Of a stretch of 14,354 bases of DNA, positions 2,732 through 13,027 are shown one piece after another. Position 1 is the first letter of the stretch, and the number at the start of each line of letters is the position of its first letter. Below the pieces are notes generated by a model that had not been told where the DNA came from, searched no databases, and saw only the letters and a list, made by a program, of their open reading frames with translations. The DNA is from Salinispira sp. GTDB taxonomy: Bacteria > Spirochaetota > Spirochaetia > DSM-27196 > Salinispiraceae. The DNA lies in NCBI GenBank assembly GCA_965226555.1, contig CBDDDG010000003.1, forward strand, positions 1 to 14,354. Direction: 5' to 3'. A program made the position numbers and the translations under genes.

Positions 2732-2787
2732 TGGTATAGTAACAGTTGAGAAACTGTGCGTCAAGCGCAATTTCAATCTTATTGAAG

Positions 2788-2816
2788 ATTATACCTGATC
2801 ATAGTCTCTTTTGCAA
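2788..2816 (-). promoter_or_regulatory. Sigma70-type promoter for the lipoprotein gene
   Basis: Minus strand TTGCAA-17 nt-TATAAT, about 175 nt upstream of the ATG at 2612. Confidence 0.7.
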
Positions 2817-2897
2817 GCAAAATGAGCATAGCCCAAGTCTACCGACATTATTCTGTCAAAACCCCGTCAAAAAATTTGTTGGGGAAGTTCTGCAATC

Positions 2898-2926
2898 TTT
2901 ACACATCGCATATCATCTACTATACT
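2898..2926 (+). promoter_or_regulatory. Sigma70-type promoter for the fucose operon
   Basis: TTTACA-17 nt-TATACT, 60 nt upstream of the fucI ATG. Confidence 0.65.
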
Positions 2927-2985
2927 TCTGCTATTGTCTGCAAGAACCCAGAAAAACCGCTGCGGACAGTGAAGGAGAACAGCAC

Positions 2986-4788
2986 ATGAAAATAAACAGC
3001 GCATATCATACAGGAAAAAAACGCTACGCTGCTGCTGCGCCAAAGGTCGGTATACGGCCGACTATTGATGGAAGACTCGGCGGAGTTCGGGAATCGCTTG
3101 AAGATCAGGTAATGGGAATGGCGCAACGGGCTGCCGAACTTATATCTTTCTCTCTCAAACACCCCGATGGAAGCTCCGTGGAGTGTATTGTTTCCGATTC
3201 CGCAATTGGCGGAGCGGCCGAAGCCGCAGTCTGCGAAGAAAAATTTGAACGGGAAGGGGTCGGACTCAGCCTCACGGTAACCCCCTGCTGGTGCTACGGA
3301 TCGGAAACCATGGATACCCACCCGAGCCGTCCCAAGGCCGTGTGGGGTCTGAACGGCACCGAACGCCCGGGAGCTGTGTATCTTGCAGCAGTGCTTGCAG
3401 GGCATGCGCAGAAGGGACTTCCGGCCTTCGGCATTTATGGTAAAGACGTTCAGGATTCCGATGATACAACAATTCCCGACGATGTTGCGGAGAAAATTCT
3501 CCGTTTTACCCGGGCAGGGCTCGCAACTGCCTGGATGCGGGGGAAAAGTTATTTGTCCATTGGAGCTGTGAGCATGGGAATTGCCGGTTCCATTGTGCAG
3601 GAAGATTTTTTCCAGACCTGGTTAGGTATGCGGAATGAATATGTGGATATGAGCGAAGTTAACCGGCGGGTAAGCGGGGGCATTTTTGACACGGGCGAAT
3701 ATGCCGTTGCCCGCGAGTGGGTACGTAAAAACTGCCGGATGGGAACCGATCCAAATCCGCAACCCTATTCAGATGAGGAACTCTCCGCTGCCATGGACTA
3801 TTCGGTAAAAATGGCGCTGGTCTGCCGTGATCTCATGGTTGGCAACGAAAAGCTCATAAAACTGGGCTTTGGCGAAGAGGCCCTGGGGCACAACGCTCTT
3901 GCAGCCGGCTTTCAGGGGCAACGCGCCTGGACCGATTACCTGCCGAATGGCGATTTCATGGAAGCCATTCTCAATACCGGCTTCGACTGGAACGGCTTCC
4001 GCCAACCCTACATTATGGCCACTGAAAACGATAGTTTGAATGCTGCCAGCATGCTTTTCGGGCACCTTCTCACCAACACTTCCCAACTCTTTTCAGATGT
4101 ACGCACCTACTGGAGTCCCAATGCCGTACAGAAAGCCGCCGGATATACCCCCAGCGGCAGGGCGCGGCAGGGTTTTATCCATCTCATTAATTCCGGCCCA
4201 ACAGCCCTCGATGCTACCGGAAAGCAGCGCAGCGCAGACGGCAGCCCCGTCATGAAACCCTTCTGGGAAGTTACGGCAGACGAAGCCGCAGCCTGCCTCG
4301 AAGCTACCCGCTGGTGTCCGTCCATCCGCGAATACTTTCCCGGCGGCGGATTCTCAACAGACTTCCTCACTGAAGGCGATATACCGGTAACCATGTGGAG
4401 GATCAACCTCATTAAAGGACTTGGTCCGCACATTCAAATTGCTGAAGGGTACACAATCGCATTACCCGAGAAGGTACATGACATTCTGGATGCCCGCACA
4501 AACCCCACCTGGCCGACAACCTGGTTTGTCCCCACCCTCACGGGCGAAGGGCAATTTACCGGTGTGTATGAGGTGATGGCGGCATGGGGCGCGAACCATG
4601 GGGCAATAAGCTGCGGACATATCGGGGCAGACCTCATTACTCTTGCTTCTATTTTACGCATTCCGGTGAGCATGCATAATGTTTCCGCAGACAGGATATT
4701 CCGCCCTGCCGTATGGAAGGCCTTCGGGCAGGAAGCGGAAGGCGCCGATTACCGCGCCTGCAAAAACTTTGGCCCCCTGTATACCTAA
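2986..4788 (+). CDS. fucI: L-fucose isomerase
   Basis: [60 protein letters not shown] and WGANHG motifs. The start is moved from 2746 to ATG 2986, which follows an AAGGAG RBS (600 aa). Confidence 0.97.
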
Positions 4789-4863
4789 CCTGTATACCTG
4801 AATGGCTATGAGAAGCGAGTTTTTATCAATGCAAAAGTTTCTACGTGATATAAAGGAGCAACC

Positions 4864-5433
4864 ATGCTAAAAGGCATACATCCTATTCTTTCTCCAGATG
4901 CCCTTCATGCCATTGCATCAATGGGACATGGAGATGAACTCCTTATCGCAGACGGAAATTATCCTGCTGCGGCAAAGGCAAAAAGATTGATCCGCTTTGA
5001 TGGGCACCCAATATCGCTCATTCTCGCGGGTCTTCTCGATCTTTTCCCCCTCGATTCTTTTATCGCACAGCCCATTATTCTTATGGACGTACCGGAGGAT
5101 GTTGAAAACCCGCCGGTCTGGGAAGAATACCGGAATATAATTACGAAAAAAGATGTACTTTTTTCCCGCTCAAACGCGCCGACTCCGGCTCCGGCAACCG
5201 CATCGGCGTTGACAAACGCGCCGACTCCGGCTCCGGCAGCCGCGCCGACTCCGGCAGCCGCTCTGGCAACAACGGGACGTTCCTGGGAAAACTCCGTGGA
5301 ACATCTTGAACGCTTTGCATTTTATAAACGGGCAGATAATTGCTTTGCCGTTTTCGCAAGCGGGGAAACAGCGCTTTATGCCAATATCATTCTGAAAAAG
5401 GGTGTTCTGAAAAAGGAAGATCTGGCACTGTGA
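4864..5433 (+). CDS. fucU: RbsD/FucU family L-fucose mutarotase with an Ala/Pro/Thr-rich insertion
   Basis: MLKGIHPILSP, MGHGDELLIADGNYP, ERFAFY and GETALYANIILKKGV motifs. AAGGAG RBS. Directly follows fucI. Confidence 0.92.
   Translation: MLKGIHPILSPDALHAIASMGHGDELLIADGNYPAAAKAKRLIRFDGHPISLILAGLLDLFPLDSFIAQPIILMDVPEDVENPPVWEEYRNIITKKDVLFSRSNAPTPAPATASALTNAPTPAPAAAPTPAAALATTGRSWENSVEHLERFAFYKRADNCFAVFASGETALYANIILKKGVLKKEDLAL
5171..5270 (+). repeat. In-frame 42-bp tandem repeat with sub-repeats inside fucU
   Basis: caaacgcgccgactccggctccggca at 5171 and 5213, plus a further gcgccgactccggcagccgc. Encodes NAPTPAPATASALTNAPTPAPAAAPTPAAALA. Confidence 0.88.
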
Positions 5434-6905
5434 AGTATATTGCGGTCGATCTGGGAGCGGGCAGCGGGAGGATTGTGGCAGGCACCCCCGCCTCGGAACC
5501 CCTCACCCCCGATCCGCTCAACTCCGATCCGCCTCCCGCCTCAGGCGGGGCAGACGATGGGCTGGACATTCTCTACCGCTTCACAACACCCTCGGTGGTT
5601 CTCCCCACGGGCATACACTGGGACATTGCCGCTATTTTCAATAACATAAAAAAGGGTCTCCGCGCGGCATTTCTGAAGTACGGCGATGAAATAGTCAGTA
5701 TTTCCGTAGATAGTTGGGGTGTCGATTATGGACTACTCGATGCTGGCTCCGAGCTTATTGGCCTTCCCTACCATTACCGCGACCAGCGAACCGATACTAT
5801 CATGGATGGGGTCTTTTCCATTATCTCCGAGCGGGATATCTACGAACGCACCGGCATACAGTTCATGCAGCTTAACACCCTGTTCCAACAGATCGCCTTT
5901 ATGAAATCTCACCCTGATCTGTTTTCCTGCGCCCGCTCCTATCTTTCCATTCCTGATCTGATCATCTACTGGCTCTGCGGGGAAATGACAAACGAACGCA
6001 CACATGCTTCAACAACCCAACTTTTTAGCCCGCACCAAAATACCTGGGATCGTGAGCTCATGGATATTCTCAAGCTGCCGAAAACTATTTTCCGGGAGAT
6101 AGTACCCTCAGGAACCCCGCTTGCACCGCTCCTCCCGCAGGTTCAGCAGGAAGTTGGGGCACCTGCTTCAGTACAGGTCATTGCCGGTGCCGGGCACGAT
6201 ACACAGGCAGCATCTTTCACCGTACCTGCCAGCGCAGACACCGCCTTCCTCAGCTGCGGAACCTGGTCGGTCATGGGTATTGAAAGCAGTACGGCCATCA
6301 TCAGCGACACGGGCTTTGCCTATTCGGCCTCAAACGAGGCAAGCGCGCGCGGCGGCTACAATCTTCTGAAAAACCTGCTCGGACTCTGGCTCCTGCAGGA
6401 ATGTAAGGCCGAGTGGGACGCCGAACACAGGGTTAGCGCAGCGGGCACAGGATCTGCAGCTCGTGCGGCTGGAACGGCGGGCGCCGCAGAATCCGATTAT
6501 GCAAAACTTATAGAACAGGCGCGCTGCGCAGATGCTCCCGAGAAGCTGATTGATGTCAACAATGATATATTTCTGAAATCGCGGCATCAGGCAGGTTCCA
6601 TGCAGGAACGAATCAACCGGCATCTTTCAGAGAAGGGCGCGCAGCCCTGTACCGAGCGCAGCCAGATAGTGCGGGTGATCATCGAAAGCCTCGCCGAACT
6701 GTACCGGAAGACCCTCAATGAACTTGAAGAAATAAGCGGACGGAAAATAACACGGCTCCACATTATCGGCGGCGGCGCGCAGAATGATCTTCTCTGTGAA
6801 CGCACCACAGAGCTGAGCGGACGGGAAGTTATTGTTGGGAATCCTGAAGCCACCGCCATCGGAAATATCAGCATTCAGCAGCAGACAATGCAGAAACTGG
6901 AATGA
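5430..6905 (+). CDS. FGGY-family rhamnulokinase-like sugar kinase, probably acting as L-fuculokinase
   Basis: AVDLGAGSGR, DSWGVDYGLLD, YRDQRT, GHDTQAA, FLSCGTWS, GGGAQN and EATAIGN motifs. The GTG start at 5430 overlaps the fucU stop (GTGA). Substrate is inferred from operon context. Confidence 0.9.
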   Translation: MKYIAVDLGAGSGRIVAGTPASEPLTPDPLNSDPPPASGGADDGLDILYRFTTPSVVLPTGIHWDIAAIFNNIKKGLRAAFLKYGDEIVSISVDSWGVDYGLLDAGSELIGLPYHYRDQRTDTIMDGVFSIISERDIYERTGIQFMQLNTLFQQIAFMKSHPDLFSCARSYLSIPDLIIYWLCGEMTNERTHASTTQLFSPHQNTWDRELMDILKLPKTIFREIVPSGTPLAPLLPQVQQEVGAPASVQVIAGAGHDTQAASFTVPASADTAFLSCGTWSVMGIESSTAIISDTGFAYSASNEASARGGYNLLKNLLGLWLLQECKAEWDAEHRVSAAGTGSAARAAGTAGAAESDYAKLIEQARCADAPEKLIDVNNDIFLKSRHQAGSMQERINRHLSEKGAQPCTERSQIVRVIIESLAELYRKTLNELEEISGRKITRLHIIGGGAQNDLLCERTTELSGREVIVGNPEATAIGNISIQQQTMQKLE

Positions 6906-6926: not shown

Positions 6927-8030
6927 TCACTTTATGGTTTTTGCATTACGACAATGTACTTCAGTAAGCCCTATTTGATACGAAGTGTAATTGATATCGG
7001 GCTGCCCCTGACGAGCATAATATGAAGAAAAACGCGCTAATACATCCTTTACAAACGAAGGTGAAATCTGAATTGAAGGCGCTTCGAATTGCTCATCAAT
7101 CTTTTCCTTTGGCAGTGTTGACAATTTTCTGAAATTCAAAAATCCGCCAGTGAAGGAATTAGTCTTAGGCAACCAGTGATAATATGCCGTATTGTTATTT
7201 CTGAATGCTTTTTCGAGTTCTTTTTTTGAGGGTTCGTTGGGAAATACCGTTTTACATGAATCTATTTCAGCAATGAGTATTCTATCTGTTTTAATACCGT
7301 TTTCGCCTCTTATTACAAGGTCGCAGGCCGGAGTCAAAACAACAAAGTAGTTTTCCTCTGTTTTCGATTTGATAATGCTGCCAGTGCGGATGCGGTTTGT
7401 ATGGGGTGGCGCCAAGTACATTTCTTCCGGGAAGTATCGATCTTCATCATTATCAAGAAGTTGAAGAAGGTGATTTAACGTATACCGAAGTAATGCTCTT
7501 TCTGTACGGAATGGATCAGTTTTACCGTAGACCACCCATATACCTTTCTGAGGAAGCAGATTTTTCAGAAATACCGTATTCAGCGCCTTTTCAATTTCAC
7601 CACGGCCTCCCATAATTTTCGTTAATCCGGTATTATAAATTTCCCAGAGCAGATCAAATATATGAACATATTCCGACCCAGGCTCTCCTTTCTTTAATAC
7701 TAATTCCCTGAGCAAATTACTCGATTCAACTGCATTAGGTGTACCAGTTAATATAACAACCGGAATTCGGAAACACGCATCTTCTATTTCCCTCACAACC
7801 TTATTTCCCGCATCCTTTTCATCTTCATTGCCGAGATTCAGATCGATAATAGCCCCATCGTATGTATTATTTAACTTATCGAAAGCGTCTGCCAAAGTTT
7901 TGCATGGCGTCAATTCAATATTCTTATTCTTATGTTCATCATTGTAACGGTCTATTGAATCCTCGCAGGTTTTAACATCTTCGTCATTATCTTCTACAAG
8001 CAGTAATTTGAAAGTACTCACCTCAGTCAT
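6927..8030 (-). CDS. Response regulator: N-terminal receiver domain, helical linker and uncharacterised C-terminal effector domain
   Basis: LLLVEDN acidic pocket, AIID63LNL phospho-acceptor, VILTG and LKKG give an intact receiver. The likely start is ATG 8030 (or GTG 8021), overlapping the kinase stop, rather than 8192. No HTH output domain is recognisable. Confidence 0.85.
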   Translation of the reverse strand: MTEVSTFKLLLVEDNDEDVKTCEDSIDRYNDEHKNKNIELTPCKTLADAFDKLNNTYDGAIIDLNLGNEDEKDAGNKVVREIEDACFRIPVVILTGTPNAVESSNLLRELVLKKGEPGSEYVHIFDLLWEIYNTGLTKIMGGRGEIEKALNTVFLKNLLPQKGIWVVYGKTDPFRTERALLRYTLNHLLQLLDNDEDRYFPEEMYLAPPHTNRIRTGSIIKSKTEENYFVVLTPACDLVIRGENGIKTDRILIAEIDSCKTVFPNEPSKKELEKAFRNNNTAYYHWLPKTNSFTGGFLNFRKLSTLPKEKIDEQFEAPSIQISPSFVKDVLARFSSYYARQGQPDINYTSYQIGLTEVHCRNAKTIK

Positions 8031-10188
8031 TCTCCATAATCGGTTGAAGTCTGAACCACACACCCTGCTCAGACTCAAGAGCTTTAAGCTCCATGCCATT
8101 TCGCATCGCAGCTTCTCCGGCAATTGCCAGTCCGAGTCCTGTTCCTGATGGTTTTGTGGAAAATTGAGGTTCAAAGATAACCTCACTGTCAATCAGAAAT
8201 TGTTCAATACCCGGTCCGGTATCACGATAGTCGATATGCAGAAGAGAATTATCGTCAGTTACAAGATCAATGATAATGTTCTTATCGCTTGTGCTTTTTT
8301 CATTCATCCAATACATACTGTTATCAACAAGGTTTGTGAAAATCGCATAGATGTCCTGCTGCCAAGCGGATAACTCAAAATTATCGGAACCGTTTACACT
8401 CACCGTTATGTTCTGAGCCTTCATTTCTTCTTCAAAAACTGACAAACTACCCAGAATAGTATCTTTCAGTAACAGCTGTTTCCTGGCAGAACGTTTCCCG
8501 GCTGCTAGGGGGTCAAGTCTGCTGAACAACTTCACAAAAACCTCCGCATTACTGCCAACTCCCTCAACTATGGGCATGCTTTTCTCCAATGTATTCCGCT
8601 CACCCGTTTCTCTGAATAATTTATACCAGTATTGAAGATTCGGAATCTGATTACGGAAAAAATTCAAAGGACGTCTGCCTTCATGAAGAATGACGTTTAT
8701 TATTTTTCCCAGAGTAGCCTGCCCCTGATAAATTGCAACTGCTTGGCGGATTTCATCAACAATTTTATTTCTATTTTCCGCATCCCGATTAATAATATCT
8801 GTGACTGTATTAATGGTTTCAGTATTAACGCCGCCTTTGGTAAGTGTAGATTTGACATTTTTTTTCAAACCGTCATATGCAAACATTTTCTCAAACTCAC
8901 GTTCAATTTTCGAAACAGGCCTACCTAATCCGGCTTTCTGCCTGAATTCAAAACGCCGACTTTCAAGCAGGGTAATTACGTCTTGTGTAATTTTTTTCAA
9001 CTTAGTAAAGGCGTCATTTTCACGGAGCCCATCTCGCGCGCTTTTTTCTATTAATCCGGACAGTTTTTCCGACTGTATCTCCACATATCCAATAACCTGA
9101 TTGCTGCCAATTCTTAGCGAAGGGTTCTGAACACGTTGCTCATTCAGTTTCAGCCAATCAAACTCAGCATCACCAAGAGGACGAATACGAAAACCGTTCC
9201 GATAAACGCCAATTCCGTTATATTCGTTAAGGAGCTGTCTCGCCTCCAGTTTTCCCACATAGTTTCCTGATTCATCTTTGAGACCTCTGGCAATAAGAGA
9301 TTCAATGGCTTCCTTTTCACGGTCATAAACACGAATATCAAAAACCAGATCGCCGCATCCGGTTGGACCATCATTATCAAACGGGATTTTCTCCTCTGTT
9401 GTGTTTCGGGCTTTCTGTAATCCATATTCCAGAACACCTCTGCCATCCGCATGTATTCTCCCCATTATTCTATAGTCAAATAACTCGAAAATGGGATATG
9501 GTTCTATGGTCTCGTCAATATCCTGAACTTTGGGAAATCCGCGTATCTTCATATGTATGCGAAAATCATCAGCGGTCTGCTGATCATTGGAAGAGATACT
9601 CACAGGAGGTACAAGCTTCTTAAGCTCAAACCGCAGTTTATTGAATTGTTTCTGATCCCATTCGGAAATGAGTTTCCTGCTGCCGGATATAATTAATCGT
9701 GTGCCGGATGCTTCATTGACATCAGAAGTTTCAATTAATATTTCCACATCATCCAGATACTGAGCAGCCTCAAATGCCTGCCATTCGACCAGAACCGTGG
9801 TTTTCTTTCCTCCGGACGTTACGGTCTCAAGCAACAGATCCTCACCTAATAGTGAAGCAGCATATCGGCCAATTCCCTTACGCCCCTGCATGGTTCTCCC
9901 CGAAGGGCTTTTGTTTTGGTCAAGCTTGTATCGGGTAGATGGCACCATCCACTTGCCGGCAACATCATCCCGCGACATGCCATGCCCATGGTCGCTTATC
10001 GTAATAGTATATGTCTGATCTGTCTTTGCGGAGAAATCAATACATACATCAGGAGAATCGGCATCGTAGGCATTCTTTACCAGCTCCACAACAGCAGCAT
10101 AAGAATCTTGTATGAGGTCTCGGCCAATAGTCAAAATATGTCTGCCGGCCGGCCTTATTCTATATGATCCGCTCATATTCACTGCCAT
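8023..10188 (-). CDS. MORC/MutL-like GHKL ATPase fused to a C-terminal histidine kinase (HisKA-like plus HATPase_c); soluble
   Basis: N-terminal GHKL motifs ELVKNAYDA, DHGHGM, GRKGIGR and GTRL. Middle domain VYRNGFRIRPLG...IGYV...SARDGL. H-box ILH502EGRRPL, N-box NLVDNS, G1 DTGPGI, F/G2 IFEPQFSTKPSGTGLGLAIA. No hydrophobic transmembrane stretch. Confidence 0.9.
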   Translation of the reverse strand: MAVNMSGSYRIRPAGRHILTIGRDLIQDSYAAVVELVKNAYDADSPDVCIDFSAKTDQTYTITISDHGHGMSRDDVAGKWMVPSTRYKLDQNKSPSGRTMQGRKGIGRYAASLLGEDLLLETVTSGGKKTTVLVEWQAFEAAQYLDDVEILIETSDVNEASGTRLIISGSRKLISEWDQKQFNKLRFELKKLVPPVSISSNDQQTADDFRIHMKIRGFPKVQDIDETIEPYPIFELFDYRIMGRIHADGRGVLEYGLQKARNTTEEKIPFDNDGPTGCGDLVFDIRVYDREKEAIESLIARGLKDESGNYVGKLEARQLLNEYNGIGVYRNGFRIRPLGDAEFDWLKLNEQRVQNPSLRIGSNQVIGYVEIQSEKLSGLIEKSARDGLRENDAFTKLKKITQDVITLLESRRFEFRQKAGLGRPVSKIEREFEKMFAYDGLKKNVKSTLTKGGVNTETINTVTDIINRDAENRNKIVDEIRQAVAIYQGQATLGKIINVILHEGRRPLNFFRNQIPNLQYWYKLFRETGERNTLEKSMPIVEGVGSNAEVFVKLFSRLDPLAAGKRSARKQLLLKDTILGSLSVFEEEMKAQNITVSVNGSDNFELSAWQQDIYAIFTNLVDNSMYWMNEKSTSDKNIIIDLVTDDNSLLHIDYRDTGPGIEQFLIDSEVIFEPQFSTKPSGTGLGLAIAGEAAMRNGMELKALESEQGVWFRLQPIMEND

Positions 10189-11441
10189 ACCTCCATCAAT
10201 TTATTTGCAATCTTCCCTGCCAACAGAACCGGTACAGCATTCCCTATTTGCCTGAAAGCTGGTGTTCTTTTCGGTGGTCCTACAGAACTCTCAAAGAAAT
10301 AATCGTCAGGAAATGTCTGCAATCGCGCTGCCTCCCGCGGCGTAATTGATCGGTTCTGTTGAATATCAGGATGAATATAATAATGCCCATCACGCGCAAT
10401 ATGCGCAACAACAGTATGAGAATATGGCAAATTAGAAGCAACCACCTTAAAACGGTCAAGAAAAGAATTGCAGTTATTATGAGTTTTTAGCCGTTTCGGC
10501 AGGGAATTATAATTAAGCCGAGTTTTTCCAGTGTTCCAGCGTTCAACAACCAGATGATAAATTTCACGATCCTGATCTGTATGGGGTCTTGCCTGGTGCC
10601 ATGTTACCGGAAGAGTTTCATTCCTAATTTCTGCATTATGCTGCCATGTCCCTTCATATTTTTTTGTTTGGCAGGGGCCGGCACCGCCTTCTCCTGCAAC
10701 AATTTCCGGAAGATCACAAAGAGCATCATCCACTGTTGCCTTCGAATTCCATTTTTCAGGTTCCGGATAAAAACCGGCGGAATTACCCCGCCTCCCTACA
10801 AGAATGATTCTTTTACGTCTTTGCAAGACCCCGTATTCTTCCGCGGAGAGGGTTCTGTATTCTGTCTCATACCCGCATTTCTGAAAAAGCTCTCTCATTT
10901 TGTCAAAATAGAATTGATCATCAGAATCTTTTGCGGAAAGTAACCCTGTTACATTTTCAAATACAAAATATGAAGGTTGATATCGCCTGAGAAACTCTGC
11001 GTAATGAATATACAAATAGTTTCTTTTATCGCCTTTCATATTATTGCGGTCACGAGACCTGCCGACAAGAGAATATGCCTGACAGGGAGGTCCCCCGATA
11101 ATAAGGTCAAGTTTCTGATCTCTCAACATCGCATCGACTTTCCGAAATATTTCTGATAATGATTTTTCGTTGATCTCCGCATGTATTACAGATTCAATCA
11201 CTCTGTCCGGAATCTGATTATAGAATTCCGAACGTGTCAGTTGATCATTCAGATAATCAGCATATATATCTATTCTGTCGTGCCTTTTCAGCCAGTGATA
11301 TGCCATTCGGGTTCGCAGAGTAAAACAAGCTGCGCTGTCCAATTCAACATGGGCTATCGGTTCAAAACCGGCGCGTATGAACCCTTCGGATAAACCACCA
11401 GCCCCAGCAAACAGATCAATATACTTCAGAGATTTCTTCAT
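10179..11441 (-). CDS. DNA (cytosine-5)-methyltransferase
   Basis: Motif I DLFAGAGG, IV GGPPCQAYS, VI FENVTGL, VIII QRRKRI, IX RSITPREAARLQTFPD and X RQIGNAVP. GGAG RBS. The 3' end overlaps the ATPase/kinase start. Confidence 0.96.
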   Translation of the reverse strand: MKKSLKYIDLFAGAGGLSEGFIRAGFEPIAHVELDSAACFTLRTRMAYHWLKRHDRIDIYADYLNDQLTRSEFYNQIPDRVIESVIHAEINEKSLSEIFRKVDAMLRDQKLDLIIGGPPCQAYSLVGRSRDRNNMKGDKRNYLYIHYAEFLRRYQPSYFVFENVTGLLSAKDSDDQFYFDKMRELFQKCGYETEYRTLSAEEYGVLQRRKRIILVGRRGNSAGFYPEPEKWNSKATVDDALCDLPEIVAGEGGAGPCQTKKYEGTWQHNAEIRNETLPVTWHQARPHTDQDREIYHLVVERWNTGKTRLNYNSLPKRLKTHNNCNSFLDRFKVVASNLPYSHTVVAHIARDGHYYIHPDIQQNRSITPREAARLQTFPDDYFFESSVGPPKRTPAFRQIGNAVPVLLAGKIANKLMEVWQ

Positions 11442-11478
11442 ATCTTGCTCCGTTCACGAAGGACATTGAACCAATGCC

Positions 11479-11487
11479 ATAGTATCA
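11479..11487 (-). promoter_or_regulatory. Possible extended -10 promoter for the methyltransferase operon
   Basis: Minus strand TGa-TACTAT about 40 nt upstream of the ATG at 11441. No matching -35. Confidence 0.35.
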
Positions 11488-11575
11488 AAACAATATAACA
11501 GGAATACACTTTCGAAGGAACAAACAGGTAGCCAGTACTACCCATGTAATGCTTTTTCCGACCTGCAATACCTGT

Positions 11576-13027
11576 TCAACATGGCAACAAACCATTCGAA
11601 TAAGCAGCCCGCTGAAGCCGATCTCGCAGCGCCGCAGTGTCTGTTGCCGCTATCTCCGCTGCCCCCCCAATGTCCGTTGCCGCTATCTCCGCTGCCCCCC
11701 CAGTGTCCGCCGCTATCTCCGCGGTCTCCGGCGGCAGCCATGCCAGAATTACTGAAGCAGCAGAGCGATCTATCGCCGAGCAGCCCCCGATCGCAGCGCC
11801 ACCTTCTATCGTAGCGTCGCCCCCGATCGCCGCGCCGCCTTCTATCGTAGCGCCGCCTTCTATCGCCGAGCGGTCTATCTCATAAAAAATCCGGTACAAA
11901 TTCCGCGCATAATCTGCCGTACTTTTTATCCGAATTATCTGTCTCCTGCTCCTGCCGACAGCAGACTCGGCAACATCATGCATATCCCTCAGATTATTCG
12001 GATATCCCCGTTGTACAGCCTCATGGACTGACCGCTGTACTGCCGTCTTCTTTTCCGATCTATTTTGCGAATAATCGCTGCTGTGAAAGTTCACGGTGAA
12101 TGCAGGATCGGGGACAATGAGCCAGACCTGCCCCTTCCCTTCGGCCGCGCTCAGGGCATTCCAAAGTTCATCAACATTCTGATACAACTTCAGCGGGGTG
12201 CGGGGCGCGTAATGGCGGTAGCGGGTGCCCGGAGCGGGGACATGATCGGCGGGGATAGGACCGGTGGGCGCGGTCAGGGGAGCGGTTTTTTCGAGCTGCC
12301 GGAGACCAGAGCTCTTCAGCGCGCGGTTGATCATCGCAGAGCTAATGCTGCCCGGCCGCAAAATGCGCGGGCATCCCTGACTGCCGCAGTAGACAATGGT
12401 CGATTCCAGTCCCAGCTCGCAGGATGGGCCTTCGATGATGGCGGCAACGTTTCCGTTCATTTCATGCCAGGCCATGTCGAAGGTTGTCGGACTCGGGCGG
12501 CCGGAACGGTTAGCCGAGGGAGCGGCGATGCCCGCGTCCGCGCCGGCAATAAGCGCTTGGGCGATGGATGATGACGGAATGCGCAGCGCAATGGTATTGT
12601 GTCCCGCAGCGGCGGCAGGAGCCCTGTGTGGCCGGCGATTCACGATGAGCGTGAGGGGACCCGGGCTGAAGGCTTCGAAAAGGCAGCAGGCGATATCCGG
12701 CATATCCGCAGCATAATCGGCAGCCATCCTCCGATCCGCAACATGAACAATGAGCGGATTATCCGCAGGACGCCCCTTCACCCTAAATATTTTTTGCACC
12801 GCGGCATCATCATCTGCCATAGCACCGAGACCATAGACCGTTTCAGTTGGGAATATAACAAGTTCACCTTCACGCAGAAGCTGCCCCGCTCTTTCAAGAT
12901 CATCGGCAGTGAGGCGGAGGGTCGTCTGCGCTGCTCCGCCAGCGGTGCCCGCATTGGCAACGGTGCCCGCATTGGCAGCGCCAGCGGCGGTGCCGCCAGC
13001 ATCAGGTGTGAATGAAGATTTTTCCAT
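11576..13027 (-). CDS. sua5: L-threonylcarbamoyladenylate synthase (Sua5-type TsaC) with several low-complexity insertions
   Basis: FPTETVYGLGA, KGRPADNPLIVH, PGPLTLI, APSANRSGRPSPT, GLESTIV, ILRPG and the Sua5 linker PGTRYRHYAP, with a C-terminal YARNLYRIF...LRDRLQRAA. ATG 13027 is preferred to TTG 13033. Confidence 0.93.
   Translation of the reverse strand: MEKSSFTPDAGGTAAGAANAGTVANAGTAGGAAQTTLRLTADDLERAGQLLREGELVIFPTETVYGLGAMADDDAAVQKIFRVKGRPADNPLIVHVADRRMAADYAADMPDIACCLFEAFSPGPLTLIVNRRPHRAPAAAAGHNTIALRIPSSSIAQALIAGADAGIAAPSANRSGRPSPTTFDMAWHEMNGNVAAIIEGPSCELGLESTIVYCGSQGCPRILRPGSISSAMINRALKSSGLRQLEKTAPLTAPTGPIPADHVPAPGTRYRHYAPRTPLKLYQNVDELWNALSAAEGKGQVWLIVPDPAFTVNFHSSDYSQNRSEKKTAVQRSVHEAVQRGYPNNLRDMHDVAESAVGRSRRQIIRIKSTADYARNLYRIFYEIDRSAIEGGATIEGGAAIGGDATIEGGAAIGGCSAIDRSAASVILAWLPPETAEIAADTGGAAEIAATDIGGAAEIAATDTAALRDRLQRAAYSNGLLPC
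11636..11722 (-). repeat. 33-bp in-frame tandem repeat in sua5 (about 2.6 copies)
   Basis: artgtcygttgccgctatctccgctgccccccc units start at 11636 and 11669, with a partial unit at 11702. Encodes GGAAEIAATD[IT]. Confidence 0.9.
11780..11870 (-). repeat. 18-bp in-frame tandem repeat in sua5 (about 5 copies)
   Basis: Encodes AIEGGA-TIEGGA-AIGGDA-TIEGGA-AIGGCS. Repeated gccgccttctatcg and cccccgatcgc words. Confidence 0.88.
12941..12998 (-). repeat. 18-bp in-frame repeat in the N-terminal extension of sua5
   Basis: cggtgcccgcattggca occurs twice with an 18-bp period. Encodes ANAGTV-ANAGTA within a G/A/T-rich leader. Confidence 0.85.

Follow-up and report, generated by a model that had tools for sequence, protein, structure and literature searches.

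The 14,354-nt stretch of Salinispira sp. DNA analysed here (GCA_965226555.1, contig CBDDDG010000003.1; hereafter the window) carries at positions 6,927–11,441 a cassette of three overlapping genes, all on the minus strand, for a C5 cytosine DNA methyltransferase, a soluble GHKL ATPase–histidine kinase and a receiver protein. A MazF/CcdB toxin fold is predicted for the tail of the receiver, and this toxin-fold effector, the new part of the cassette, suggests an anti-phage system that is turned on by phosphorylation and not by antitoxin loss. We are evenly divided on whether the whole is a mobile, restriction-modification (R-M)-like defence cassette whose restriction enzyme has been replaced by a phosphorelay and an effector with a toxin fold. 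Kinase–receiver–methylase modules without a known output have been on record since 2021, and the fold offers a concrete effector candidate with named residues and two proposed activities, RNase or protein poison, that is relevant to a family of more than 1,000 clusters. Literature searches found neither a published test of the gene trio nor a report of a toxin fold in the tail.

The receiver, kinase and methylase of the cassette

The receiver–effector gene (6,927–8,030, minus strand) encodes a 367 aa protein with three parts. A receiver (REC) domain (residues 5–135; 7,626–8,018) that includes D14, D63 (codon 7,842–7,844), T95 and K114 is followed by a conserved two-helix linker (residues 136–195; 7,446–7,625; conservation 0.65; modelled helices at 145–171 and 173–193) and an acidic PEE motif, and then by the C-terminal MazF/PemK/CcdB/Kid-fold domain (6,975–7,445; core residues 212–342). 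Foldseek comparison of the predicted structure places this tail in the MazF/PemK/CcdB superfamily fold (best E = 1.1e-3). G217, P234 and C236 are invariant in the tail, while D237, H285, R333 and the R340-Q-G-Q-P motif are nearly so. Conservation is strongest at T216/G217, C236-D237-L238 and R340–G342, which, judged by eye and from where the structural match ends, fall at the place where CcdB grips gyrase. The effector may thus poison a topoisomerase or some other protein under the control of phosphorylation, or contain a new Cys-Asp-Arg catalytic site. The tail differs from the MazF/PemK/Kid, CcdB and ToxN toxins in being fused to a receiver without an antitoxin gene, in that the MazF catalytic Arg and Thr are, by eye, not conserved, and in its identity of 9–16% to MazF/CcdB. 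Pfam and structure comparison revealed no helix-turn-helix (HTH) in the receiver, and Pfam gave no PemK or CcdB match there; profile comparison of the tail with PemK and CcdB gave no signal, and the positive control, PemK against CcdB, likewise failed.

The kinase gene (8,023–10,188, minus strand; 721 aa, with a GTG at 10,182 as a possible start) encodes a paraMORC-like fusion of HATPase_c_3, a His box and HATPase_c, with no membrane helix. Its N-terminal GHKL ATPase domain (residues ∼20–170; 9,679–10,131; E35, N39, D66, G102–K104 and T163) matches HATPase_c_3 (E = 3.3e-17) and, at residues 22–178, the BbrUII/HgiDII restriction-enzyme model (E = 2.9e-17; 98% in a profile match with that family), and its ATP motifs are intact. 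His502, in the HE motif of the H-box (codon 8,683–8,685), is kept in 66 of 66 homologues, and N619, N623, D656, G658/660 and G682/684/686 are invariant in the catalytic ATP-binding domain (8,044–8,361; HATPase_c, E = 8.5e-19; kinase models span residues 468–715). The most conserved segment of the kinase (conservation 0.73) is a middle domain of about 190 residues (residues 230–420; 8,929–9,501), which is positioned as S5 is in paraMORC proteins and is presumed from that architecture to be an S5-like transducer or DNA-contact region.

ParaMORC GHKL ATPases belong to R-M systems and lie in methylase/Vsr neighbourhoods, and they are proposed to control a C-terminal output (Iyer et al. 2008, PMC2292703). 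The BbrUII/HgiDII-family restriction enzymes and the GHKL-Shedu protein VcSduA (PMC12137116) belong with them. All of these share with the cassette kinase an N-terminal GHKL ATPase in methylase/Vsr neighbourhoods; the paraMORC output is a nuclease or TIR domain, whereas that of the cassette is a histidine kinase, and significant similarity to the BbrUII/HgiDII enzymes is limited to the GHKL domain.

The methylase (10,179–11,441, minus strand; 420 aa; catalytic Cys120 codon 11,082–11,084) matches PF00145 (E = 9e-58), and the C5 catalytic motifs are kept in 47 of 47 homologues. PADLOC was run on the three proteins, and its best model for the methylase, over the full length, was DrmMII of class 2 DISARM (PDLC02649, E = 1.9e-168); unlike DISARM, the cassette has no DrmA/B/C/E match among its proteins and is flanked by housekeeping or sugar genes, as identified by Pfam. 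This is also the sole C5 methylase found in the host genome. No cognate restriction endonuclease was found in the window, where restriction-enzyme models match the GHKL head of the kinase only, nor was an XRE controller or a separate HNH nuclease. The methylase is intact and conserved, as are both ATP sites, His502 and Asp63, and the modelled toxin-fold tail has an invariant surface. The original prediction, made from the sequence alone, had described three overlapping genes for an intact C5 methylase, a two-GHKL protein with His502 and a receiver with Asp63, and this description was confirmed; an intact His-to-Asp relay and a GHKL head of the R-M kind are also supported.

Family spread and relation to known systems

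Relatives of the receiver number 1,349 at 90% clustering, and those of the tail alone 1,052 at 50% clustering. They occur sporadically across many bacterial phyla and in one archaeon, while none of the 98 other genomes of the host's order has the receiver. It is present on 46 plasmid records, of which 42 are predicted to be conjugative and 41 come from Campylobacter and fall into a few near-identical types; the one Campylobacter record that was inspected (L092, 3,810–8,240) is a pTet-type conjugative plasmid with kinase, receiver and a convergent dcm. In the window, the GC content is 41.8% in the cassette versus 55–59% in flanking genes (third positions, 35–40% versus 57–59%), and 122 of 1,986 genome windows have GC as low.

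A locus scan confirmed 132 loci, and neighbourhood counts were taken from the best 80. The kinase adjoins the receiver in 73 of the 76 loci with enough upstream DNA, and the upstream methylase is of the same family in 51/65 loci, with another C5 methylase nearby in 5/65 and none in 9/65. When the 60 loci with both flanks were searched by tblastn, Vsr accompanied 34 of 42 full methylases, one of five partial ones and three of five other C5 methylases, giving 38/52 loci with a C5 methylase versus 0/8 without; ORF clustering gave a lower count (31/60). The usual unit is therefore one of four genes, and the window cassette, which has a methylase and no accompanying Vsr, is a vsr-less minority form. 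Vsr repairs deaminated 5-methylcytosine (PMC8011034), and its tie to the methylase would mean genuine methylation of the host DNA.

Variants of the unit were also seen. In a recurrent form nearer the gene set of the Ambrosia system (see below), an HNH_2 nuclease gene directly precedes the kinase or a receiver remnant and the methylase is shortened (L034, 6,451–7,811; L051, 6,757–7,829; L014, 113–1,002; L067, 8,869–10,020). The closest relatives of the cassette (L001, 8,141–10,163; L002, 11,563–13,585) have vsr followed by two genes, of 179 and 461–491 aa, without Pfam or PADLOC matches. One 571 aa protein (P0191) joins the first part of the methylase to the last part of the receiver, as a misassembly or a deletion spanning the cassette would produce.

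The gene layout itself was described in 2021. Bellieny-Rabelo, Pretorius and Moleleki (PMC8011034) reported soluble HATPase_c_3, His-box and HATPase_c kinases beside receivers in 644 regions, where a C5 methylase lay upstream and Vsr frequently followed downstream; the paper reports no known domain beyond REC and no experiment, and proposes a regulatory role. This HEF_HK (PF19191)/Response_reg_2 (PF19192) family shares with the window cassette the kinase architecture, the adjoining receiver and the upstream C5 methylase; the downstream Vsr is matched at the family level and not by the window copy, and the Response_reg_2 proteins are ∼550–640 aa long, compared with about 360 aa for the cassette receiver. 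PF19192 matched neither the window receiver (0/1) nor its relatives (0/21); the model itself works, as five of 201 genomes passed the cut-off, and it misses a genome (G179) that carries the cassette receiver type. PF19191, run without a positive control, matched neither the window kinase nor nine relatives.

Profile comparison of the cassette tail with the tail of PF19192 proteins gave a probability of 97% (E = 7e-11; score 68, with 60 block shuffles reaching 49.5 at most), and homologous tails were found in 25 of 97 proteins at E < 1e-3 (database size 1e6), with shared TG, CD and R-x-G motifs. Given these homologous tails, and although the Pfam models miss it, the cassette represents a sister branch of HEF_HK/Response_reg_2, and that published family probably has the toxin fold as well. 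Response_reg_2 proteins of E. coli, Salmonella and Acinetobacter have such tails, and published members ending in a domain homologous to that of the cassette include L128–L132 and P0374–P0475.

A second known system, Ambrosia (AbrR/A/B/C/D; van den Berg et al., bioRxiv 10.1101/2025.09.30.679545), is a methylase–kinase–receiver cluster that blocks phage and requires the receiver Asp; it also has an XRE controller and a separate HNH nuclease, its methylase acts on N6-adenine and its receiver is described as REC-wHTH (winged HTH). The two share a methylase, a HATPase histidine kinase and a receiver in one cluster, and the cassette differs in its C5 methylase, its MazF/CcdB-fold tail and the absence of a controller and a nuclease.

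A conserved, R-M-associated unit is supported by the kinase and methylase counts, and marking of host DNA by the methylase fits the Vsr distribution. The absence of Vsr holds for the window copy and is not supported as a family trait, nor is novelty of the architecture, given the 2021 paper and the 2025 preprint. Overall the original interpretation is partly supported, and the evidence favours a mobile, R-M-associated unit with a relay and a toxin-like effector fold.

Proposed mechanism and alternatives

From the anatomy, conservation, linkage, mobility and predicted fold we infer phosphotransfer, a trigger, toxicity and defence as follows. The methylase would mark host DNA at a C5 site, and the GHKL clamp would engage DNA or the methylase; an encounter with DNA that is foreign or lacks the mark, or with an R-M enzyme that has been disabled, would switch on the fused kinase. 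Phosphoryl transfer from His502 to Asp63 would rearrange or dimerise the receiver and free the toxin-fold domain, which would stop growth or phage replication either by CcdB-like binding of a protein target or through RNase activity at a non-canonical active site (C236/D237/H285/R340). Because phosphorylation is the proposed switch, no antitoxin gene would be needed, and none adjoins the receiver in the window, where its gene lies between that of the kinase and a convergently oriented FGGY kinase gene. A bolder proposal, which we hold tentatively and with some doubt, is that the cassette and the whole HEF_HK/Response_reg_2 group form an immune class in which a MORC-like clamp would read self-methylation and, through His-to-Asp phosphorylation, activate an antitoxin-free MazF/CcdB-fold toxin whose conserved residues lie, by eye, at the gyrase-gripping site of CcdB. 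If the toxin-fold effector holds up, it would join three fields that are usually kept apart, R-M self-marking, two-component signalling and toxin–antitoxin toxins, with phosphorylation in the antitoxin's place, and would provide a small prokaryotic model for MORC-type ATPases reading DNA methylation.

Several observations weigh against the defence reading. Kinase and receiver are kept in eight of 60 loci without a nearby C5 methylase, and in seven of these the proteins are full length and none of the key residues tested has been lost; the Ambrosia preprint (10.1101/2025.09.30.679545) reports that methylation gave phage no protection and describes the receiver as a wHTH regulator; the methylase-less loci and the unprotected phage both speak against self/non-self sensing. 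Seven of these eight loci are from Poribacteria, so they may represent few events. On the effector side, identity to MazF/CcdB is 9–16%, the best Foldseek E is 1.1e-3, and a shared fold shows no function. The catalytic residues of MazF/PemK RNases, an Arg before strand 2 and a Thr after strand 3 (PMC10893535), are not conserved in the tail, as column 227 is variable and column 257 is E, D or Q in a by-eye register on the PemK consensus. The middle domain of the kinase gave a non-significant profile match (0.5%) with the BbrUII-family middle region, leaving the S5 or DNA-binding role unconfirmed. In addition, Pfam covered 93 of the 1,126 genes called in the neighbourhoods, and rare or singleton cognate nucleases may be missed.

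Loci without the methylase raise the alternative of a guard module, in which the kinase would monitor a host methylase or R-M complex of any type and fire the effector when a phage inhibits it, methylation status not being the signal. PrrC acts as such a guard for type Ic R-M. Kinase and receiver do lie inside a type I operon (hsdM/S, a SEFIR-TIR gene, kinase, receiver, hsdR) without a C5 methylase in L032 (4,690–14,181), L041, L045 and L057, directly behind a type I operon at L068, and next to type III genes at L020 and L039, but all four type I insertions are from Poribacteria. The partner methylase is swapped in 5/65 loci and Ambrosia methylation did not shield phage, whereas the same methylase family is coupled in 51/65 and methylase tree distances track the GHKL/middle region of the kinase best (Spearman 0.76, which reflects shared ancestry and is no independent test). 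We consider this guard function unlikely, although it ranks first among the alternatives.

Next, and also unlikely, is a regulatory two-component system in which a non-toxic, nucleic-acid- or protein-binding tail would control how the methylase or neighbouring R-M genes are expressed or how active they are; the papers on the 2021 family and on Ambrosia both favour regulation. The loss of the MazF catalytic residues and the lack of an antitoxin gene in the window agree with this, and only 4/43 loci have an HTH gene ahead of the methylase, which would leave the relay as a possible source of regulation. Type I or III R-M genes are found in 25 of 46 wide loci, but recurrent R-M or nuclease clusters to regulate are absent from 15 of the 46, and from the window; moreover, the receiver has no HTH, and an invariant Cys-Asp…Arg surface is unusual for a plain regulator. 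The least probable alternative, which we regard as improbable, is a selfish addiction module, where cassette loss would dilute the methylase, unmarked host DNA would trip the kinase and the effector would kill, with phage defence as a side effect. The toxin fold is typical of plasmid addiction (CcdB, Kid), and the scattered distribution and conjugative plasmids would suit such a module, but the plasmids are mostly the near-identical Campylobacter types, and loci with an absent or partial methylase and an intact relay should be lethal under it.

Genomic setting of the window cassette

The gap between sua5 and the cassette (11,442–11,575, minus strand) is too small to hold a controller gene and has a purine-rich, ribosome-binding-like site ahead of the methylase ATG. 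No sigma-70 promoter match was found in it, with the promoter scan overall finding 7 matches versus 11.3 expected, below chance. The 3′ end of sua5 (11,632–11,865) contains low-complexity coding repeats of 18 nt and 33 nt whose length differs among related strains. Elsewhere in the host genome (G000; contigs C1, C10–C12, C14, C18, C21, C22, C24 and C25), there are many N6/N4 methylase matches, together with several R-M loci of types I and III. Convergent with the cassette is a fucose-type sugar operon (2,746–6,905) encoding L-fucose isomerase, an RbsD/FucU mutarotase and the FGGY kinase, and positions 1,052–2,545 encode a fibronectin-III-repeat protein with a DUF285 domain.
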